Positions 14,361 through 17,081 of a DNA stretch of 44,416 nt are shown in pieces; position 1 is the stretch's first letter; each line of letters opens with the position of its first letter. Under the pieces are notes generated by a model, which searched no databases, was not told the DNA's origin, and worked only from the letters and a program-made list of their open reading frames with translations. Made by a program: the position numbers and the translations under genes. The stretch is from Escherichia phage UHP65, in the sequence record PQ511047.1; one strand, 5' to 3'.

Positions 14361-14549
14361 ATGGCTATATTCTTTGTTTTATTTCGTTGCCGTATTACCG
14401 GCGACGAGCAACCGGAAATTGTTATGAATCAAAACTGGAATTGCTGCTGGACGCAAGCCTGCGAACTCGCCTCGACCATGAACGAAGCCGCGAAGCGGGC
14501 CAATGTTGAACACGATTATTACATTGCTCAATTTACACGGGTGGAATAA
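14361..14549 (+). CDS. small hypothetical protein (62 aa or shorter)
   Basis: ATG abuts upstream stop; stop overlaps next start (TAATG). Confidence 0.35.
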   Translation: MAIFFVLFRCRITGDEQPEIVMNQNWNCCWTQACELASTMNEAAKRANVEHDYYIAQFTRVE

Positions 14550-15979
14550 TGGCGATTAAACCAAAACGTAAGACGCAATCCGGTAGCAATACGGAACACT
14601 CATTACTCGGGCCATCCGGTGCTAAAAAATGGATGGGTTGCCCAGCTGCCCTGGTGGTAGAAAAAGATATCCCGAACGAATCCGGGCAAGCCGCGATTAA
14701 CGGTACGAGTATGCACACCGTATCTGAAGTGGTGCTAAACCGCATTATCGCCGGTGAAAAGCTGATAACCGCAAAGACGTATAAAGGGTGCTACGTCGAG
14801 AACGAAGGCAAGGGGCCAGTAAAGGCACACCCGAAAGCACCGAAAGGCGGCGTACTGGTCAATGACGACATGGTGAAACAGTGCGACGCGTACATCGACC
14901 ACTGGCGACCGCTCCTCGAAGTGGCGGAGTTTGTCCAGCTTGAGATGCGCGCCGATCTAACCCGCGTCCTTCACTCAGGCTACGAGATCGACGGCAACCG
15001 GATTAAAACGTTCGGTACTGCCGATATGGTAATGGTCATGAAAAAGACCGATGGGACGTACATGCTGATTGTTGGCGACCTGAAGACCGGGCGGCATAAG
15101 GTCGAGGCGAAAGAGAACAAACAGCTTATGTTGTACGCGCTCGGACTGCTGCGCAAGCTGCAAACTATGTACGACATTACGACCGTTCGCCTGGTTATCT
15201 TCCAGCCGTATTGCGGCGGGGCGTCGGAGTGGGATATTTCGGTAGAAGCGCTGGCGATATTCGCGAAGTTTGCATCCCGGCGCGCTATTGCCGCACTGGA
15301 GGCGTATTCCCGAGGCAAGAAGGGACTCACCCGCGCAGACTTCCGGCCCAGCGTTGATGCGTGCCAGTGGTGTCGATTTGCGGATCAGTGTAGTGCCCGC
15401 GCTAAGGCCGCAATCGACACGATGACACCCCCAACGGCAACCGACGAAGACCTGGGCGACGACGTGAGTATTGCGACAGAGGAAGAATGCGCCAACCATG
15501 ACCGCAATATGGCCCGCGAAGCCAGGAAGGCGGCACGACGTGCGAAGCGTGGTAAGAAAGAAGCGGCCCCCGGTGCTATGAGCGCGGCGGAACTGCGCAA
15601 GGCTTATGAAGGCCTGGACGCAATGCGCCAGCACATCAAGGCTATCGAGTCCGCGGTATTTAAGGCGGTCATGGCGGGCGAAGGCGAATCGCTGGGCCTT
15701 AAGATGGTTGCCGGTAAGGAAGGGATCCGTAAGTGGGCGGACGAGAGCGAAGTGATTGAAATCTTCACGAAGGCCCGGATCAAGCGCGATGTGATGTACA
15801 AAGAAACATTGCTCAGCCCGACAGATGCCGAGAAGGTACTGAAGGACGAAAAACCGAAAGTGTGGGCGAAGCTGTGTGATAAAATCACGCGCGCACCTGC
15901 CAAACCGGTGTTAGCTCCAATCGACGACCCGCGCCCTGCGTGGTCGGAAGCTACTGACGAGGACTTAAGCAATGAATAA
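14549..15979 (+). CDS. Cas4/RecB-like PD-(D/E)xK exonuclease (DUF2800-like) with Cys cluster
   Basis: GTADMV, VGDLKTG and QLMLYALG nuclease-like motifs; C-terminal CQWCRFADQC. Confidence 0.7.
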   Translation: MAIKPKRKTQSGSNTEHSLLGPSGAKKWMGCPAALVVEKDIPNESGQAAINGTSMHTVSEVVLNRIIAGEKLITAKTYKGCYVENEGKGPVKAHPKAPKGGVLVNDDMVKQCDAYIDHWRPLLEVAEFVQLEMRADLTRVLHSGYEIDGNRIKTFGTADMVMVMKKTDGTYMLIVGDLKTGRHKVEAKENKQLMLYALGLLRKLQTMYDITTVRLVIFQPYCGGASEWDISVEALAIFAKFASRRAIAALEAYSRGKKGLTRADFRPSVDACQWCRFADQCSARAKAAIDTMTPPTATDEDLGDDVSIATEEECANHDRNMAREARKAARRAKRGKKEAAPGAMSAAELRKAYEGLDAMRQHIKAIESAVFKAVMAGEGESLGLKMVAGKEGIRKWADESEVIEIFTKARIKRDVMYKETLLSPTDAEKVLKDEKPKVWAKLCDKITRAPAKPVLAPIDDPRPAWSEATDEDLSNE

Positions 15980-16214
15980 AGTATTCGCAATCTTATTGAT
16001 GTTTTTGCTCGGCGCGCTTGGCTTTATCCTGCATTGCGTGCAAGGCGTGTTAATGGTGGCGTGGATGATTCGCCATCCGACCCGCTGGCTGGATGACGGA
16101 TATAGCGAAGTTGCCGTCGATTGGGTGGAAAAGAACATCGAACGCCCGCCGCTAAGCTGGATCGAGAACGCTACCAACTACGTGACCAGAAATCTTTTTA
16201 ATGAAAATGCTTGA
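15972..16214 (+). CDS. small membrane protein (80 aa)
   Basis: ATGA overlap with nuclease stop; TM segment VFAILLMFLLGALGFILHCV. Confidence 0.45.
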   Translation: MNKVFAILLMFLLGALGFILHCVQGVLMVAWMIRHPTRWLDDGYSEVAVDWVEKNIERPPLSWIENATNYVTRNLFNENA

Positions 16215-16239
16215 CCGCGTAGGCGCAACCAAGTAGATT
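16211..16239 (+). promoter_or_regulatory. sigma70-like promoter (TTGACC-17-TAGATT) flanked by two GCAACCAAG motifs
   Basis: -35 = 16211-16216, -10 = 16234-16239. Confidence 0.45.
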
Positions 16240-16304
16240 AGCAACCAAGCCGAACGGGGTGGCTTCCAATAACCCCGATACATGTGAAAATGAGGAATTG
16301 GAAA

Positions 16305-17081
16305 ATGGCTAAAGTCAACCTGAAAAATGTGCGCGTATGTTTCCTGAAAATTTGGGAACGTGATACCCCTAAACAGGATGGACAAAAACCGGCATACCGC
16401 GCCGTGATTCTTCTTGATAAAGAAGATCCGCAGGTGGACAAAGTGGAAGCGGCAGCGCGCGCAGTGCTCACCGACAAGCTGAAATCCGAGAAGAATGCCG
16501 ATAAGTGGATGGACCGCCACTACGCCCAGGATTCTAAGGAATGTGCAGTTCGCGACGGCGACGAGCGCGATGAAGTAACCGAAGAGTTCGAAGGCATGTT
16601 GTACATCAACGCCAAATCGTTCAAACAGCCTAACATCCAAACGTCACTGGGCGAGAAGCAGACCGAGCAAGGTCTGACCGTAGAAGGCGACGAGATCGAA
16701 GGCCAGGAAATCTATTCCGGTTGCTATTGCAACGTGTCCCTGGATATTTGGGCGTGGAACAACACCAACGGCAAGGGACTCGGCGCTGGCTTGCTGGGTT
16801 TACGCTTCCGCGACGACGGCGAAGCCTTCGGCGGTGGCGGGTCTTCTTGCTCGGACGAGGACCTGGGCGACGATGACGAAGATGAAAGCCCGCGCAAGTC
16901 CAAAAAGTCAAAACGTCGTGATGACGATGATGAAGACGACAAGCCGCGCAAGTCCAAAAAGTCCAAGCGCCGCGATGACGACGACGATGATGAAACACCT
17001 CGCAAACGTCGTAAGCCACGCGATGACGAAGATGAGGACGACGACGAAGACGAAGCGCCACGCAAACGTCGCCGCCGTTAA
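16305..17081 (+). CDS. ssDNA-binding protein-like (DUF2815 / gp2.5-like) with repetitive acidic/basic C-terminal tail
   Basis: ATG 16305 with GAGG RBS; MAKVNLKNVRVCF N-terminus; tail of three PRKSKKSKRRDDDDEDD-like repeats. Confidence 0.55.
   Translation: MAKVNLKNVRVCFLKIWERDTPKQDGQKPAYRAVILLDKEDPQVDKVEAAARAVLTDKLKSEKNADKWMDRHYAQDSKECAVRDGDERDEVTEEFEGMLYINAKSFKQPNIQTSLGEKQTEQGLTVEGDEIEGQEIYSGCYCNVSLDIWAWNNTNGKGLGAGLLGLRFRDDGEAFGGGGSSCSDEDLGDDDEDESPRKSKKSKRRDDDDEDDKPRKSKKSKRRDDDDDDETPRKRRKPRDDEDEDDDEDEAPRKRRRR
16889..17078 (+). repeat. in-frame tandem repeat (~54-57 nt period) encoding the SSB-like C-terminal tail
   Basis: ccgcgcaagtccaaaaagtc...gatgacga units at about 16889 and 16944, degenerate third unit. 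Confidence 0.6.

Follow-up and report, generated by a model that had tools for sequence, protein, structure and literature searches.

[quoted passage not shown] To our knowledge, the textbook tails (i.e., those of E. coli SSB, T4 gp32, T7 gp2.5, and Enc34 ORF6) are all acidic, and the linker of E. coli SSB reportedly governs cooperativity and phase separation. In T7, the C-terminal tails of the gp4 primase-helicase and of gp2.5 are equivalent. Acidic tails in the T7 replisome contact a common partner, the front basic patch of gp5 (PMC12339929). Loss of the acidic tail from Enc34 ORF6 unmasks dsDNA binding, and in the crystal this tail occupies the groove of a neighbouring molecule, burying 842 Å2; the same groove contact is seen in the 4klk, 4jg2, and gp2.5 crystals (PMC5686142). 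A duf2800-gp2.5-polA gene module has been published previously (PMC8093625), and expression of the SECphi4/SECphi18 SSB triggers Retron-Eco8 (Stokar-Avihail et al., bioRxiv 10.1101/2022.08.27.505566). In that study T56P, and also T21P, F95L, F106V, and N152H, all in the OB fold of the SSB, gave escape from Retron-Eco8 or ShosTA; the flexible C-terminal residues were omitted and the tail was not discussed (10.1101/2022.08.27.505566).

We analysed the genome of Escherichia phage UHP65 (PQ511047.1; 44,416 nucleotides, referred to as the window), a Dhillonvirus with 93-96% identity to many E. coli phages. A nuclease gene and an SSB gene open a replication/recombination set that continues with a family A DNA polymerase (PolA; 17307..19598, + strand; Pfam and PHROG, position conserved in relatives) and an SNF2 helicase. 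A 754-aa primase-helicase (AAA_25 by Pfam; 10474..12738, - strand) lies upstream and is divergently transcribed; its SECphi4/18 orthologue is annotated as 'predicted DNA primase-helicase'. The order nuclease, SSB, PolA is that of the duf2800-gp2.5-polA module, the window's ORFs include no separate ssb gene, and the same order occurs in the Oekolampad annotation and in distant relatives (loci L024-L026). The preliminary description spoke of a recombination module; replication and recombination genes are indeed present, but the nuclease-SSB pair forms the front of the published module (PMC8093625) and not a stand-alone cassette. Scanning the window for Rfam families and tRNAs gave no matches. 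The genes themselves are ordinary and had been annotated before, and the value of the locus lies in the SSB tail and in a peptide that the SSB shares with its neighbours.

The nuclease (476 aa; 14549..15979, + strand) is a DUF2800 protein of the Cas4/RecB-type PD-(D/E)xK class. It matched Pfam PF10926 (DUF2800) at 5e-66 and 223.8 bits (cut-off 21), matched PF12705 (PDDEXK_1) at 7e-8, and fell into PHROG 69 'exonuclease'. Across 28 aligned homologues the motif residues D159, D177-L-K179, and Q192xxxY196 were invariant, as were Cys31 (codon 14639-14641, + strand) and C272-x2-C275-x5-C281 (15362..15391, + strand); the CxxCx5C motif was found in 120/120 homologues. These cysteines match the four-cysteine Fe-S pattern of Cas4-like proteins, one N-terminal and three C-terminal, and may form a putative metal site. 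A PDB sequence search returned no match for the nuclease. Foldseek placed its model near the Cas4-family protein ACE1 (9iac, 6.8e-6, and 9iab), AddAB (3u44, 1.3e-4), and Cas4 SSO0001 (4ic1, 8.9e-4), with further matches to AdnAB, MGME1, and Exo5; TM scores were low owing to the moderate quality of the model (mean pLDDT 67). Pfam, catalytic motifs, invariant cysteines, and Foldseek thus agree with the original assignment as a Cas4/RecB-like nuclease with a cysteine cluster. The PD-(D/E)xK core, the QxxxY motif, and the C-x2-C-x5-C arrangement are those of the Cas4/AddB/RecB-family Fe-S nucleases, but unlike these the UHP65 protein has an extra DUF2800-specific C-terminal domain of ~180 residues and two docking-type peptides. 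Its position in a phage replication module does not fit a genuine CRISPR-associated Cas4; no CRISPR-type tandem-repeat array was found in the window, and no cas genes in the annotated relative Oekolampad.

The SSB (258 aa; 16305..17081 with the stop codon, + strand) is a DUF2815 protein of the T7 gp2.5/Enc34 ORF6 OB-fold type. It matched PF10991 (Enc34_ssDNA-bd) at 1.7e-31 and 109.7 bits (cut-off 26) over residues 10-200 of a 265-aa reading, and PHROG 112 at 2.4e-57. The AlphaFold2 (AF2) model has an OB fold over residues 1-176 (16305-16832, + strand), with pLDDT >90 for residues 1-170, and Foldseek matched it to 4klk (1.2e-11), 5odl (1.3e-11), 4jg2 (1.2e-10), and T7 gp2.5 (1je5, 2.8e-6), and also to 5odj. 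The proposal of an SSB-like protein is therefore upheld by family, model, and fold, with ssDNA binding as a prediction that gains indirect support from the triggering of Retron-Eco8, a defence linked to ssDNA, by orthologues. Enc34 ORF6 contacts ssDNA through Y30, Y37, K46, R112, W150, and Y156 (PMC5686142). In a HMMER alignment that is uncertain in the loops, three of these six residues align with like residues of the UHP65 protein (Y30 with F13, R112 with K104, and W150 with W149), and the others are changed (Y37 to T21, K46 to A30 with K28 nearby, and Y156 to N155 with W151 nearby). Membership in the bacterial, E. coli-type SSB family was rejected; Foldseek E values to bacterial SSBs exceeded 1, and a DDDIPF-type tip is absent. 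Translation probably starts at ATG 16305, judging from the GAGGA 8 nt before it and from the published SECphi4/18 annotation, which begins MAKVNLK. The GTG codon at 16284, 21 nt upstream, was discarded as a start: it is not conserved, being GTA in one relative and disrupted by a 1-nt deletion in another.

An 80-aa ORF (15972..16214, + strand) lies between the two genes, as previously noted. It belongs to PHROG 11211, a family with no assigned function, and its ~33 hydrophobic N-terminal residues (Kyte-Doolittle maximum 2.55, 19-residue window) suggest that it may be a membrane protein. It appears dispensable because it is deleted in one relative (L017/L032). A sigma-70-like site, TTGACC-17-TAGATT (16211..16239, + strand), precedes the SSB gene. 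The pattern by itself does not establish the promoter proposed there, since the scan was not above chance (4 sites vs 3.4 expected), and the site is argued instead from conservation and published mutants: the intergenic stretch with this site is nearly unchanged in 13 distinct relatives, escape mutations have been published in the intergenic region upstream of the Dhillonvirus SSB gene, and in the SECphi6 escape mutant the altered base is the equivalent of 16211, the -35 T. After the SSB stop codon, an intrinsic-terminator-like hairpin, AAGCCCGC-TTAGT-GCGGGCTT, is followed by a T run (17100..17125, + strand); its predicted RNA fold has -24.8 kcal/mol (z = -4.4), and a strict terminator scan does not list it. 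As a separate observation on the intergenic region, the SECphi4 escape mutation at -45 maps onto the window ambiguously for both strand and base.

Beyond the OB fold the SSB carries a tail of 79 residues that is predicted to be disordered (pLDDT ~50 from residue 177). From residue 180 it has 34 acidic and 27 basic residues (net charge -7), arranged in four [acidic]-x-P-[basic] units (16869..17078, + strand) and ending in RKRRRR. Units 1 (16869-16919) and 2 (16920-16973) form a 54-bp tandem repeat of 83% identity, and they are followed by units 3 (16974-17021) and 4 (17022-17078), all on the + strand. Tandem Repeats Finder (TRF) reported 16869-16995 with period 54, 2.4 copies, and 82% matches, and a repeat search placed the four units at spacings of 54, 54, and 60 nt. 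The claim that in-frame tandem repeats encode alternating basic (PRKSKKSKRR) and acidic (DDDDEDD) blocks was borne out, and charge segregation was well above chance (delta 0.449 vs 0.092 ± 0.037 in 300 shuffles; kappa ~0.55). The literature searched, with incomplete coverage, held no description of a mixed-charge SSB tail, which suggests that the Dhillonvirus tail of alternating charge blocks is undescribed.

Repeats readily collapse or expand in assembly, and one IMG/VR contig end (L016/L040) has adapter-derived sequence inside the tail. We nevertheless reject an assembly artefact, because the same architecture recurs across many isolates and assemblies that are independent of one another, among them SECphi4/18 and the BASEL phage Oekolampad. 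The +1 frame is also open over the repeats (16834-17136, a 100-aa ORF), and two records, P0005 (an NCBI phage record) and P0008, enter it within the repeats, as would be expected from programmed +1 frameshifting or from two alternative C-termini. Such an open frame is expected, however, from purine-rich GAN/AAR/CGN codons, and no slippery motif was noticed in the repeat region. The shifted proteins are singletons against 537 members in the normal cluster, which fits indel errors in the repeat, and 16/16 distinct full-length genes examined remain in frame. Frameshifting is thus very improbable.

To gather relatives of the SSB, an OB-domain alignment was used as the query and gave 80 loci; with the full-length protein, low-complexity patterns dominated and only 7 loci were obtained. 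The preliminary description expected the repeats to vary in number, and copy numbers compared across related phages did so: 17 distinct Dhillonvirus tails have 2, 3 or 4 basic blocks (e.g., SECphi4 has 3, and SECphi18 and the UHP65 window have 4). Family-wide the number ranges from 1 to 12, in lineages that share the acidic-x-P-basic grammar at 27-95% OB identity. Any basic block at all was found in 11 of 148 cluster representatives of the SSB family. The tail is therefore unusual, as had been stated, against characterised SSBs and most of the family, but it is conserved as a trait in a large clade of phages and is not a peculiarity of the UHP65 genome. Acidic and basic residue counts of the tails are closely correlated (r = 0.96), and tails with 1-4 blocks have a net charge of -6 to -7.4, vs -8.4 ± 3.0 in 149 plain tails. 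An acidic-hydrophobic end is present in 142/149 of the plain-tail relatives and is missing from the UHP65 tail.

The variation in copy number raises the question of whether the repeats have a function of their own. They could be tolerated low-complexity slippage in a disordered region, with importance confined to the OB fold and the proximal peptide. The occurrence of 2-4 copies among near-identical phages and the youth of the DNA repeat formed by units 1 and 2 are consistent with this, as is the distribution of the published Dhillonvirus escape mutations, since those within the SSB are all in the OB fold and 0 are in the tail. The full array is evidently not required, because natural 2-block variants exist. 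However, neither the first unit nor the terminal APRKRRRR varies within Dhillonvirus, and pN/pS over the last 12 codons is 0.036, compared to 0.061 in the OB core and 0.086 in the proximal peptide. Lineages with as little as 27% OB identity still show the acidic-x-P-basic grammar and balanced charge, and a rough tree implies no fewer than about 9 gains or losses of basic blocks. Taken together, these data make functionless repeats unlikely.

Alternatively, the basic blocks might act mainly as a second flexible nucleic-acid-binding arm that keeps the SSB on DNA or bridges two strands and so accelerates annealing, with the acidic blocks merely solubilising or masking the arm. The blocks start with S/T-P-R-K, which we take to resemble SPKK-type DNA-binding motifs and count in favour of such an arm. 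The family is also classed among the Gp2.5-type single-strand annealing proteins (PHROG 112; PMC8093625), and the lysine repeats of TopA, which have acidic ends, make its complexes with DNA more stable and the enzyme more processive (PMC5714199). A simple DNA clamp is disfavoured, though, because acidic charge always matches basic charge and the net charge of the tail is negative, and the acidic tail of Enc34 suppresses dsDNA binding (PMC5686142). We consider a binding arm possible but rather unlikely.

Immediately behind its OB fold, the SSB carries a family-wide acidic-hydrophobic motif, S183-D-E-D-L187 (16851..16865, + strand), which recurs in two neighbouring proteins. The nuclease has an internal linker copy, T-D-E-D-L-G-D-D (15440..15463, + strand), which homologues with at least 53% identity retain as TATD(x)DLGD and behind which lies a basic block (15515-15559), and a C-terminal copy, (EA)TDEDLSNE* (15953..15976, + strand); [ST]D[ED]DL is close to the C-terminus in nearly all of 120 nuclease homologues. 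A motif scan of the primase-helicase revealed CTDADLDNE internally (11686-11712, - strand) and SATDDDLKD* at its C-terminus (10477-10503, - strand), with conservation in a relative (L024) that has 46% identity in the SSB. Sequences of this docking type are SEATDEDLSNE, LSATDDDLKD, and SCSDEDLGDDDE. Among six-frame ORFs of at least 40 aa, [ST]D.DL occurs exactly 5 times, all in the SSB, nuclease, and primase-helicase, and a stricter form of the peptide would be expected ~0.07 times by chance.

The C-terminus of the nuclease and the SSB peptide vary together across phage lineages. Over 52 dereplicated loci, the best 6-mer match to the SSB tail of the same phage scored 22.2 on average, vs 18.3 ± 0.56 in permutations (0/5000; uncorrected for phylogeny), and lineage-specific pairs include EGLV/EGLV, DLLG/DLLG, SDFDDV/DDFDDV, and TEEDLE/VDDLED. 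The corresponding score was 17.7 for the helicase, compared to 8.9 and 9.8 for the controls, PolA and SNF2. Lineage-specific co-variation was not detected within the helicase set (z = 0.2), and for the helicase C-terminus it is the overall similarity to the SSB peptide alone that stands out against the controls. The SSB peptide aligns with 'SDAYD' of Enc34 ORF6, which by residue counting would be the last traceable tail segment, lying in the neighbour's beta-sheet groove (PMC5686142). No description of the DUF2800 tail peptide was found in the literature searched, where coverage was incomplete.

We infer that the peptide of the SSB, nuclease, and primase-helicase is a common docking element. 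It may insert into the beta-sheet groove of an SSB molecule, like the Enc34 segment in crystals, or it may dock onto PolA, as in T7; PolA, the third member of the module, is a candidate receptor. With either docking site, nuclease, helicase, and SSB would be linked to one another on ssDNA. Beyond the peptide, the remaining 70 residues would form a disordered polyampholyte of four charge-compensated units that presumably arise through tandem duplication and slippage. Because each unit is nearly neutral, the tail stays as acidic overall as an ordinary SSB tail, and we propose that it therefore keeps the usual roles, i.e., competing with DNA, conferring specificity for ssDNA, and contacting partners. 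The units could supply length and multivalent electrostatic contacts, with basic blocks pairing with acidic blocks of neighbouring tails or binding DNA. The most likely outcome would be more SSB-SSB cooperativity, strand annealing or clustering, and repeat number may serve as an evolvable tuning knob. To this whole reading, a replication module with a common docking peptide and a charge-compensated, disordered SSB tail that favours cooperativity, annealing or clustering, we assign a probability of roughly 0.55. A more elaborate version, which we regard as doubtful, has SSBs forming head-to-tail chains through SDEDL in the next molecule's groove, the tails of adjacent molecules zipping electrostatically into a condensed phase, and nuclease and primase-helicase joining by tail mimicry, with the same peptide on display. 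The SSB-ssDNA phase would then be a small replication compartment whose cohesion is set by repeat number; if true, it would give phages an equivalent of the arginine-rich mixed-charge domains by which eukaryotic condensates cohere, and it would reverse the bacterial logic, with the partners carrying the tail and the SSB the pocket.

The shared, co-varying peptide offers a testable handle on the physical assembly of the widespread duf2800-gp2.5-polA module, and the natural 2-, 3-, and 4-block alleles offer a series for the effects of charge patterning on SSB cooperativity, annealing, and clustering. Dhillonvirus is easy to handle and has laboratory strains, namely SECphi4/18 and the BASEL phage Oekolampad. 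Several defence systems sense Dhillonvirus-type SSBs, and assembly that depends on the tail could thus influence how immunity is triggered. The nuclease and SSB genes were known; the variant of the SSB tail is new, and its mechanism is one that we infer.

The closest described proteins are the SSBs of SECphi4, SECphi6, and SECphi18 ('predicted SSB, Gp2.5 family'), which are orthologues with the same OB fold and tail type. Enc34 ORF6 (PDB 5ODJ/5ODK/5ODL), the founding PF10991 structure, shares the Pfam family and fold at ~22% identity, together with a disordered C-terminal tail, a proximal S-D-x-aromatic peptide, and a DUF2800/PolA-type context. Its short tail, however, has acidic charge only (16 of the last 29 residues) and terminates in WDEDEV, whereas that of UHP65 has 79 residues, 27 of them basic. 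T7 gp2.5 is likewise an OB-fold SSB and annealing protein (11-12% identity; Foldseek E = 3e-6), and the logic by which several replisome proteins share an acidic tail with a hydrophobic residue for a common partner is T7-like. In T7 the critical residue is a C-terminal Phe; in the UHP65 SSB the hydrophobic residue is internal and followed by the repeat array, and unlike in T7 the nuclease also bears the peptide. E. coli SSB resembles the UHP65 protein in having an OB fold, a disordered low-complexity spacer of variable length, and an interaction peptide, but its OB family is a different one, its linker is Gly/Gln/Pro-rich and uncharged, and in UHP65 the order is reversed, with the peptide first and a highly charged spacer second. 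Actinobacterial topoisomerase I also has tandem basic repeats with an acidic end whose number varies between species, and the lysine repeats of Streptomyces TopA stabilise the protein-DNA complex (PMC5714199); it is an unrelated protein with net basic repeats, whereas the blocks of the SSB tail are charge-balanced. In place of the acidic tail of the textbook SSBs, a large phage clade that includes a common E. coli genus has a tail of charge-balanced blocks that varies in length.

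The window is the complete or nearly complete genome of a Dhillonvirus, an HK578-like siphophage of E. coli. Its stretch 14000-17400 matched 158 phage records, 148 of which covered at least 80% of its length, and the closest matches (94-96% identity) were Salmonella phage Kenya-K19 and Escherichia phages NHEP3, phiEco273, Sponge, SECphi18 and jat. The BASEL phage Oekolampad is annotated with the same local order (PD-(D/E)XK nuclease, hypothetical, putative SSB, hypothetical, DNA polymerase I), and more helicases lie nearby. The ORFs of the nuclease-to-SSB stretch proved to be as the preliminary description gave them. 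We regard the identities of the nuclease and the SSB as practically certain; gene identity itself is ordinary, and the duf2800-gp2.5-polA module and both protein families were already known (PMC8093625). No tRNA genes, and no Rfam families at gathering threshold, were found in the whole window. AT skew and GC skew flip sign at ~13 kb and ~26 kb, coinciding with the coding-strand switch of the early/replication block. An early-region ORF (13301-13930, +; PHROG 3127) has a charged low-complexity stretch of its own, in which a 21-bp tandem repeat (13651-13708) encodes KKAPAKG-like units, and acidic-hydrophobic motifs (DDDDANDEFDDLLESF and EDDDVEDF) similar to the family-wide SSB tail peptide DDFEDL.

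The nuclease (14549-15979, +) matches Pfam DUF2800 (5e-66) and PDDEXK_1, and D159, D177-L-K179, Q192xxxY196, Cys31 and C272-x2-C275-x5-C281 are invariant across 28 aligned homologues, with CxxCx5C present in 120/120. With a mean pLDDT of 67 (80-90 in the core) its AF2 model is of moderate quality, and the best PDB matches were Cas4-family ACE1, AddAB, Cas4 SSO0001, AdnAB, MGME1 and Exo5. The domain matches, invariant residues and fold therefore bear out the earlier assignment as a Cas4/RecB-like nuclease with a Cys cluster; identification as a CRISPR Cas4 was rejected. The 80-aa ORF that follows (15972-16214) has a strongly hydrophobic N-terminus and was assigned no known function. It is absent from one close relative (IMGVR_UViG_2595698459_000001, loci L017/L032), where the SSB promoter region directly follows the nuclease stop, and is therefore dispensable.

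The SSB (16305-17081, +) matches Pfam Enc34_ssDNA-bd (1.7e-31) and, by sequence, the solved DUF2815 proteins 4klk, 4jg2 and Enc34 ORF6 (5odj/5odk); its model has pLDDT >90 over residues 1-170, with those proteins and T7 gp2.5 as best PDB matches. The Dhillonvirus SSB is already known as a trigger of Retron-Eco8; ShosTA escape mutations are also known in it, and they all lie within the OB fold (Stokar-Avihail et al., bioRxiv 10.1101/2022.08.27.505566). The ATG at 16305 has GAGGA 8 nt ahead, lies within an invariant stretch and equals the published SECphi4/18 start (MAKVNLK). GTG 16284 was rejected as the start, as it is GTA in one relative and out of frame through a 1-nt deletion in another. 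As a pattern match, the promoter described ahead of the gene (TTGACC-17-TAGATT, 16211-16239, +) falls short of significance (4 sites versus 3.4 expected), but it is kept in 13 distinct relatives. Two sites here are changed in published SECphi6/SECphi4 escape mutants: the initial T of the -35 hexamer, which the escape tables give as the synonymous change A80A in the 80-aa ORF, and a position ~45 nt ahead of the SSB start codon.

Two conserved hairpin-forming stretches also lie upstream of the SSB on the (+) strand. One (16210-16233, CTTGACCGCG-TAGG-CGCAACCAAG) overlaps the -35 hexamer; the other (16255-16277, CGGGG…CCCCG) is in the presumed 5' UTR, and the SECphi4 Retron-Eco8 escape mutation ~45 nt upstream of the ATG maps near it. 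A strong hairpin and T run follow the SSB stop. Between this terminator and PolA lies a 56-aa ORF (17140-17310, +; PHROG 10102) with a recurrent frameshift, E21fs, in published SECphi18 and SECphi6 escape mutants; these are tabulated in one block with DNA-polymerase mutants, which the paper attributes to the Borvo system.

After F175-GGGG the SSB continues for 79 residues, which open with SSCSDEDLG and contain, in order, the units DDDEDE-SP-RKSKKSKRR, DDDDEDD-KP-RKSKKSKRR, DDDDDDE-TP-RKRRKPR and DDEDEDDDEDE-AP-RKRRRR. The in-frame tandem repeats with alternating acidic and basic blocks of the preliminary description were confirmed by TRF (16869-16995: period 54 bp, 2.4 copies, 82% matches), by a repeat search that found four units at spacings of 54, 54 and 60 nt, and by charge statistics. 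Units 1 and 2 share 83% DNA identity, and units 3 and 4 share 84% over 38 nt. With 34 acidic and 27 basic residues the tail has a charged fraction of 0.77 and a net charge of -7; kappa is ~0.55, and charge segregation lies ~10 SD above shuffles. In AF2 it has pLDDT ~50 and no secondary structure.

The peptide that opens this tail recurs elsewhere. When all six frames of the window were scanned for [ST]D.DL, exactly five matches were found, all in replication proteins; ~0.07 matches are expected for a stricter pattern of the peptide. One copy is in the SSB (CSDEDLGDD), two are in the nuclease (linker, TATDEDLGDD; C-terminus, EATDEDLSNE-stop), and two are in the divergently transcribed primase-helicase (AAA_25, 754 aa, - strand), one in the linker before the helicase domain (CTDADLDNE, 11686-11712) and the other at the extreme C-terminus (SATDDDLKD-stop, 10477-10503). 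The candidate docking peptides are SCSDEDLGDDDE, WSEATDEDLSNE and TLSATDDDLKD. A relative with a 46%-identical SSB has the peptide at the same positions. Among 120 nuclease homologues, the C-terminal copy is kept in nearly all, and the linker copy is kept in those of 53% identity or more. In the nuclease linker, TDEDLGDD is followed by acidic residues and then by a basic block (REARKAARRAKRGKK, 15515-15559, +), which is the order of the SSB tail; this block is missing in shorter homologues (~55% identity).

Across 80 viral loci retrieved by OB-domain alignment, the nuclease C-terminus tracks the SSB peptide lineage by lineage, as in the nuclease/SSB pairs NVTEEDLE-stop and SASVDDLEDD, SDFDDVTNS-stop and ADADDFDDVSIEDLV-stop, EEALEGLV-stop and GADAEGLV-stop, ETSDLLG-stop and DGDDLLG-stop, and RFTDFSDEDE-stop and SKFKDFGEDDEDE. 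The mean best 6-mer BLOSUM62 score of the nuclease C-terminus against its own SSB tail was 22.2, compared with 18.3 +/- 0.56 for shuffled pairings (0/5000 permutations, uncorrected for phylogeny). By the same score the helicase C-terminus reached 17.7, and the controls PolA and SNF2 reached 8.9 and 9.8.

We put at roughly 60% the probability that the peptide is a docking element common to the SSB, the nuclease and the primase-helicase, a reading drawn from groove contacts of the Enc34 type and from tail-polymerase docking in T7. The tail of T7 gp4 docks on the polymerase as the gp2.5 tail does. For gp2.5, the docking site of the acidic tail is the basic patch at the polymerase front (PMC12339929). 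In crystals of Enc34 ORF6, the final residues that can be traced in the tail occupy a groove in the seven-stranded sheet of a neighbouring molecule, burying 842 A2; the authors describe the same groove contact in the 4klk, 4jg2 and gp2.5 crystals and propose head-to-tail assembly (PMC5686142). Judging from the published construct boundaries and our alignment, the inserted residues would be about S184-D188 ('SDAYD'), which align with SDEDL here. The receptor may be the SSB groove, PolA (17307-19598, +) or both; the crystal contacts, and the way the peptide co-varies with that of the SSB itself, make the SSB groove somewhat more likely. A docking peptide supports viewing these genes as one physical module, which goes beyond gene order.

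When the whole library was searched by HMMER with only the OB domain, 2497 cluster representatives were found (E <= 1e-3). The best 148 of these are mostly 175-205 residues long, and their typical tail is short and purely acidic, with a conserved A-S-x-D-D-F-E-D-L type start and a hydrophobic last residue; a basic block of any kind occurs in 11/148. When the tail was included in the search, >100 clusters showed the [acidic]-x-P-[basic] grammar, with 1 to 12 blocks and OB identities of 27 to 95%. In its simplest form the array consists of a single acidic and a single basic block (…VDDLEDDEDETPRRERRRNR). In distant lineages the array is preceded by the proximal peptide and followed by a classical acidic-hydrophobic tip (…DDDVA, …DDDDY, …DDDDI, …DDDDEF); the Dhillonvirus clade and its neighbours have lost this tip, and their SSBs end in arginines. 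A rough NJ tree of OB domains gave at least ~9 state changes of the trait, the largest zwitterionic clade having n=77. Net charge is -8.4 +/- 3.0 in 149 plain tails, those without basic blocks, and -5.9 to -7.4 in tails with 1-4 blocks, even though the latter can be up to threefold longer. The counts of acidic and basic residues correlate tightly (slope 1.2, r = 0.96). Given the conserved net charge and this correlation, the units are charge-compensated insertions in what is otherwise an ordinary acidic tail.

Within Dhillonvirus, the copy-number variation predicted for the repeats was found among 17 distinct tails (IMG/VR and GenBank). These keep the frame in all cases and vary by whole blocks, with 2, 3 or 4 basic blocks (three in SECphi4, four in SECphi18) in a segment of 50-87 residues from FGGGG; the length of the acidic runs also varies. 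Common to all are the first segment, …SDEDL(G/D)(D/N)DDEDE-xP-RKSKKSKRR, and the terminal APRKRRRR. Across 16 distinct genes the OB core has a pN/pS of 0.061, compared with 0.086 in the 12 codons surrounding SDEDL and 0.036 in the final 12 codons; the tail ends are therefore constrained at the protein level as strongly as the fold.

The +1 frame is open through the entire repeat region (16834-17136), and two database proteins (P0005 and P0008, one from an NCBI phage record) shift into it within the repeat region; indel errors in the purine-rich repeat are the simplest explanation. In one public viral contig (IMGVR_UViG_3300045988_003101, loci L016/L040) the SSB tail at the contig end becomes '…AVSYTHLRAHET', presumably translated Nextera adapter, which would mean that this contig is contaminated with adapter. 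Both cases look like technical errors.

No description of the alternating-charge tail or of the shared peptide was found in the searchable literature, and both are apparently new; the SECphi work explicitly left out the flexible C-terminal SSB residues. They are of moderate relevance to those who study SSBs, the replisomes of phages or charged disordered regions. Since the array lies after the proposed docking peptide, is predicted to be disordered and matches a normal tail in net charge, it should leave the canonical tail roles intact: competition with DNA for the basic cleft, discrimination of ssDNA from dsDNA, as shown for the acidic tail of Enc34 (PMC5686142), and partner contact. The neutral, strongly segregated blocks would contribute extra length and multivalency. 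On an SSB-coated strand, basic blocks may pair with the acidic blocks of neighbouring tails, or they may touch DNA, and the array might thereby raise cooperativity, annealing or clustering, and be tuned easily through repeat slippage. We offer this specific mechanism tentatively and by analogy. Among known systems, the linker of E. coli SSB and arginine-rich mixed-charge domains are comparable. The lysine repeats of TopA (PMC5714199) provide a further analogue.
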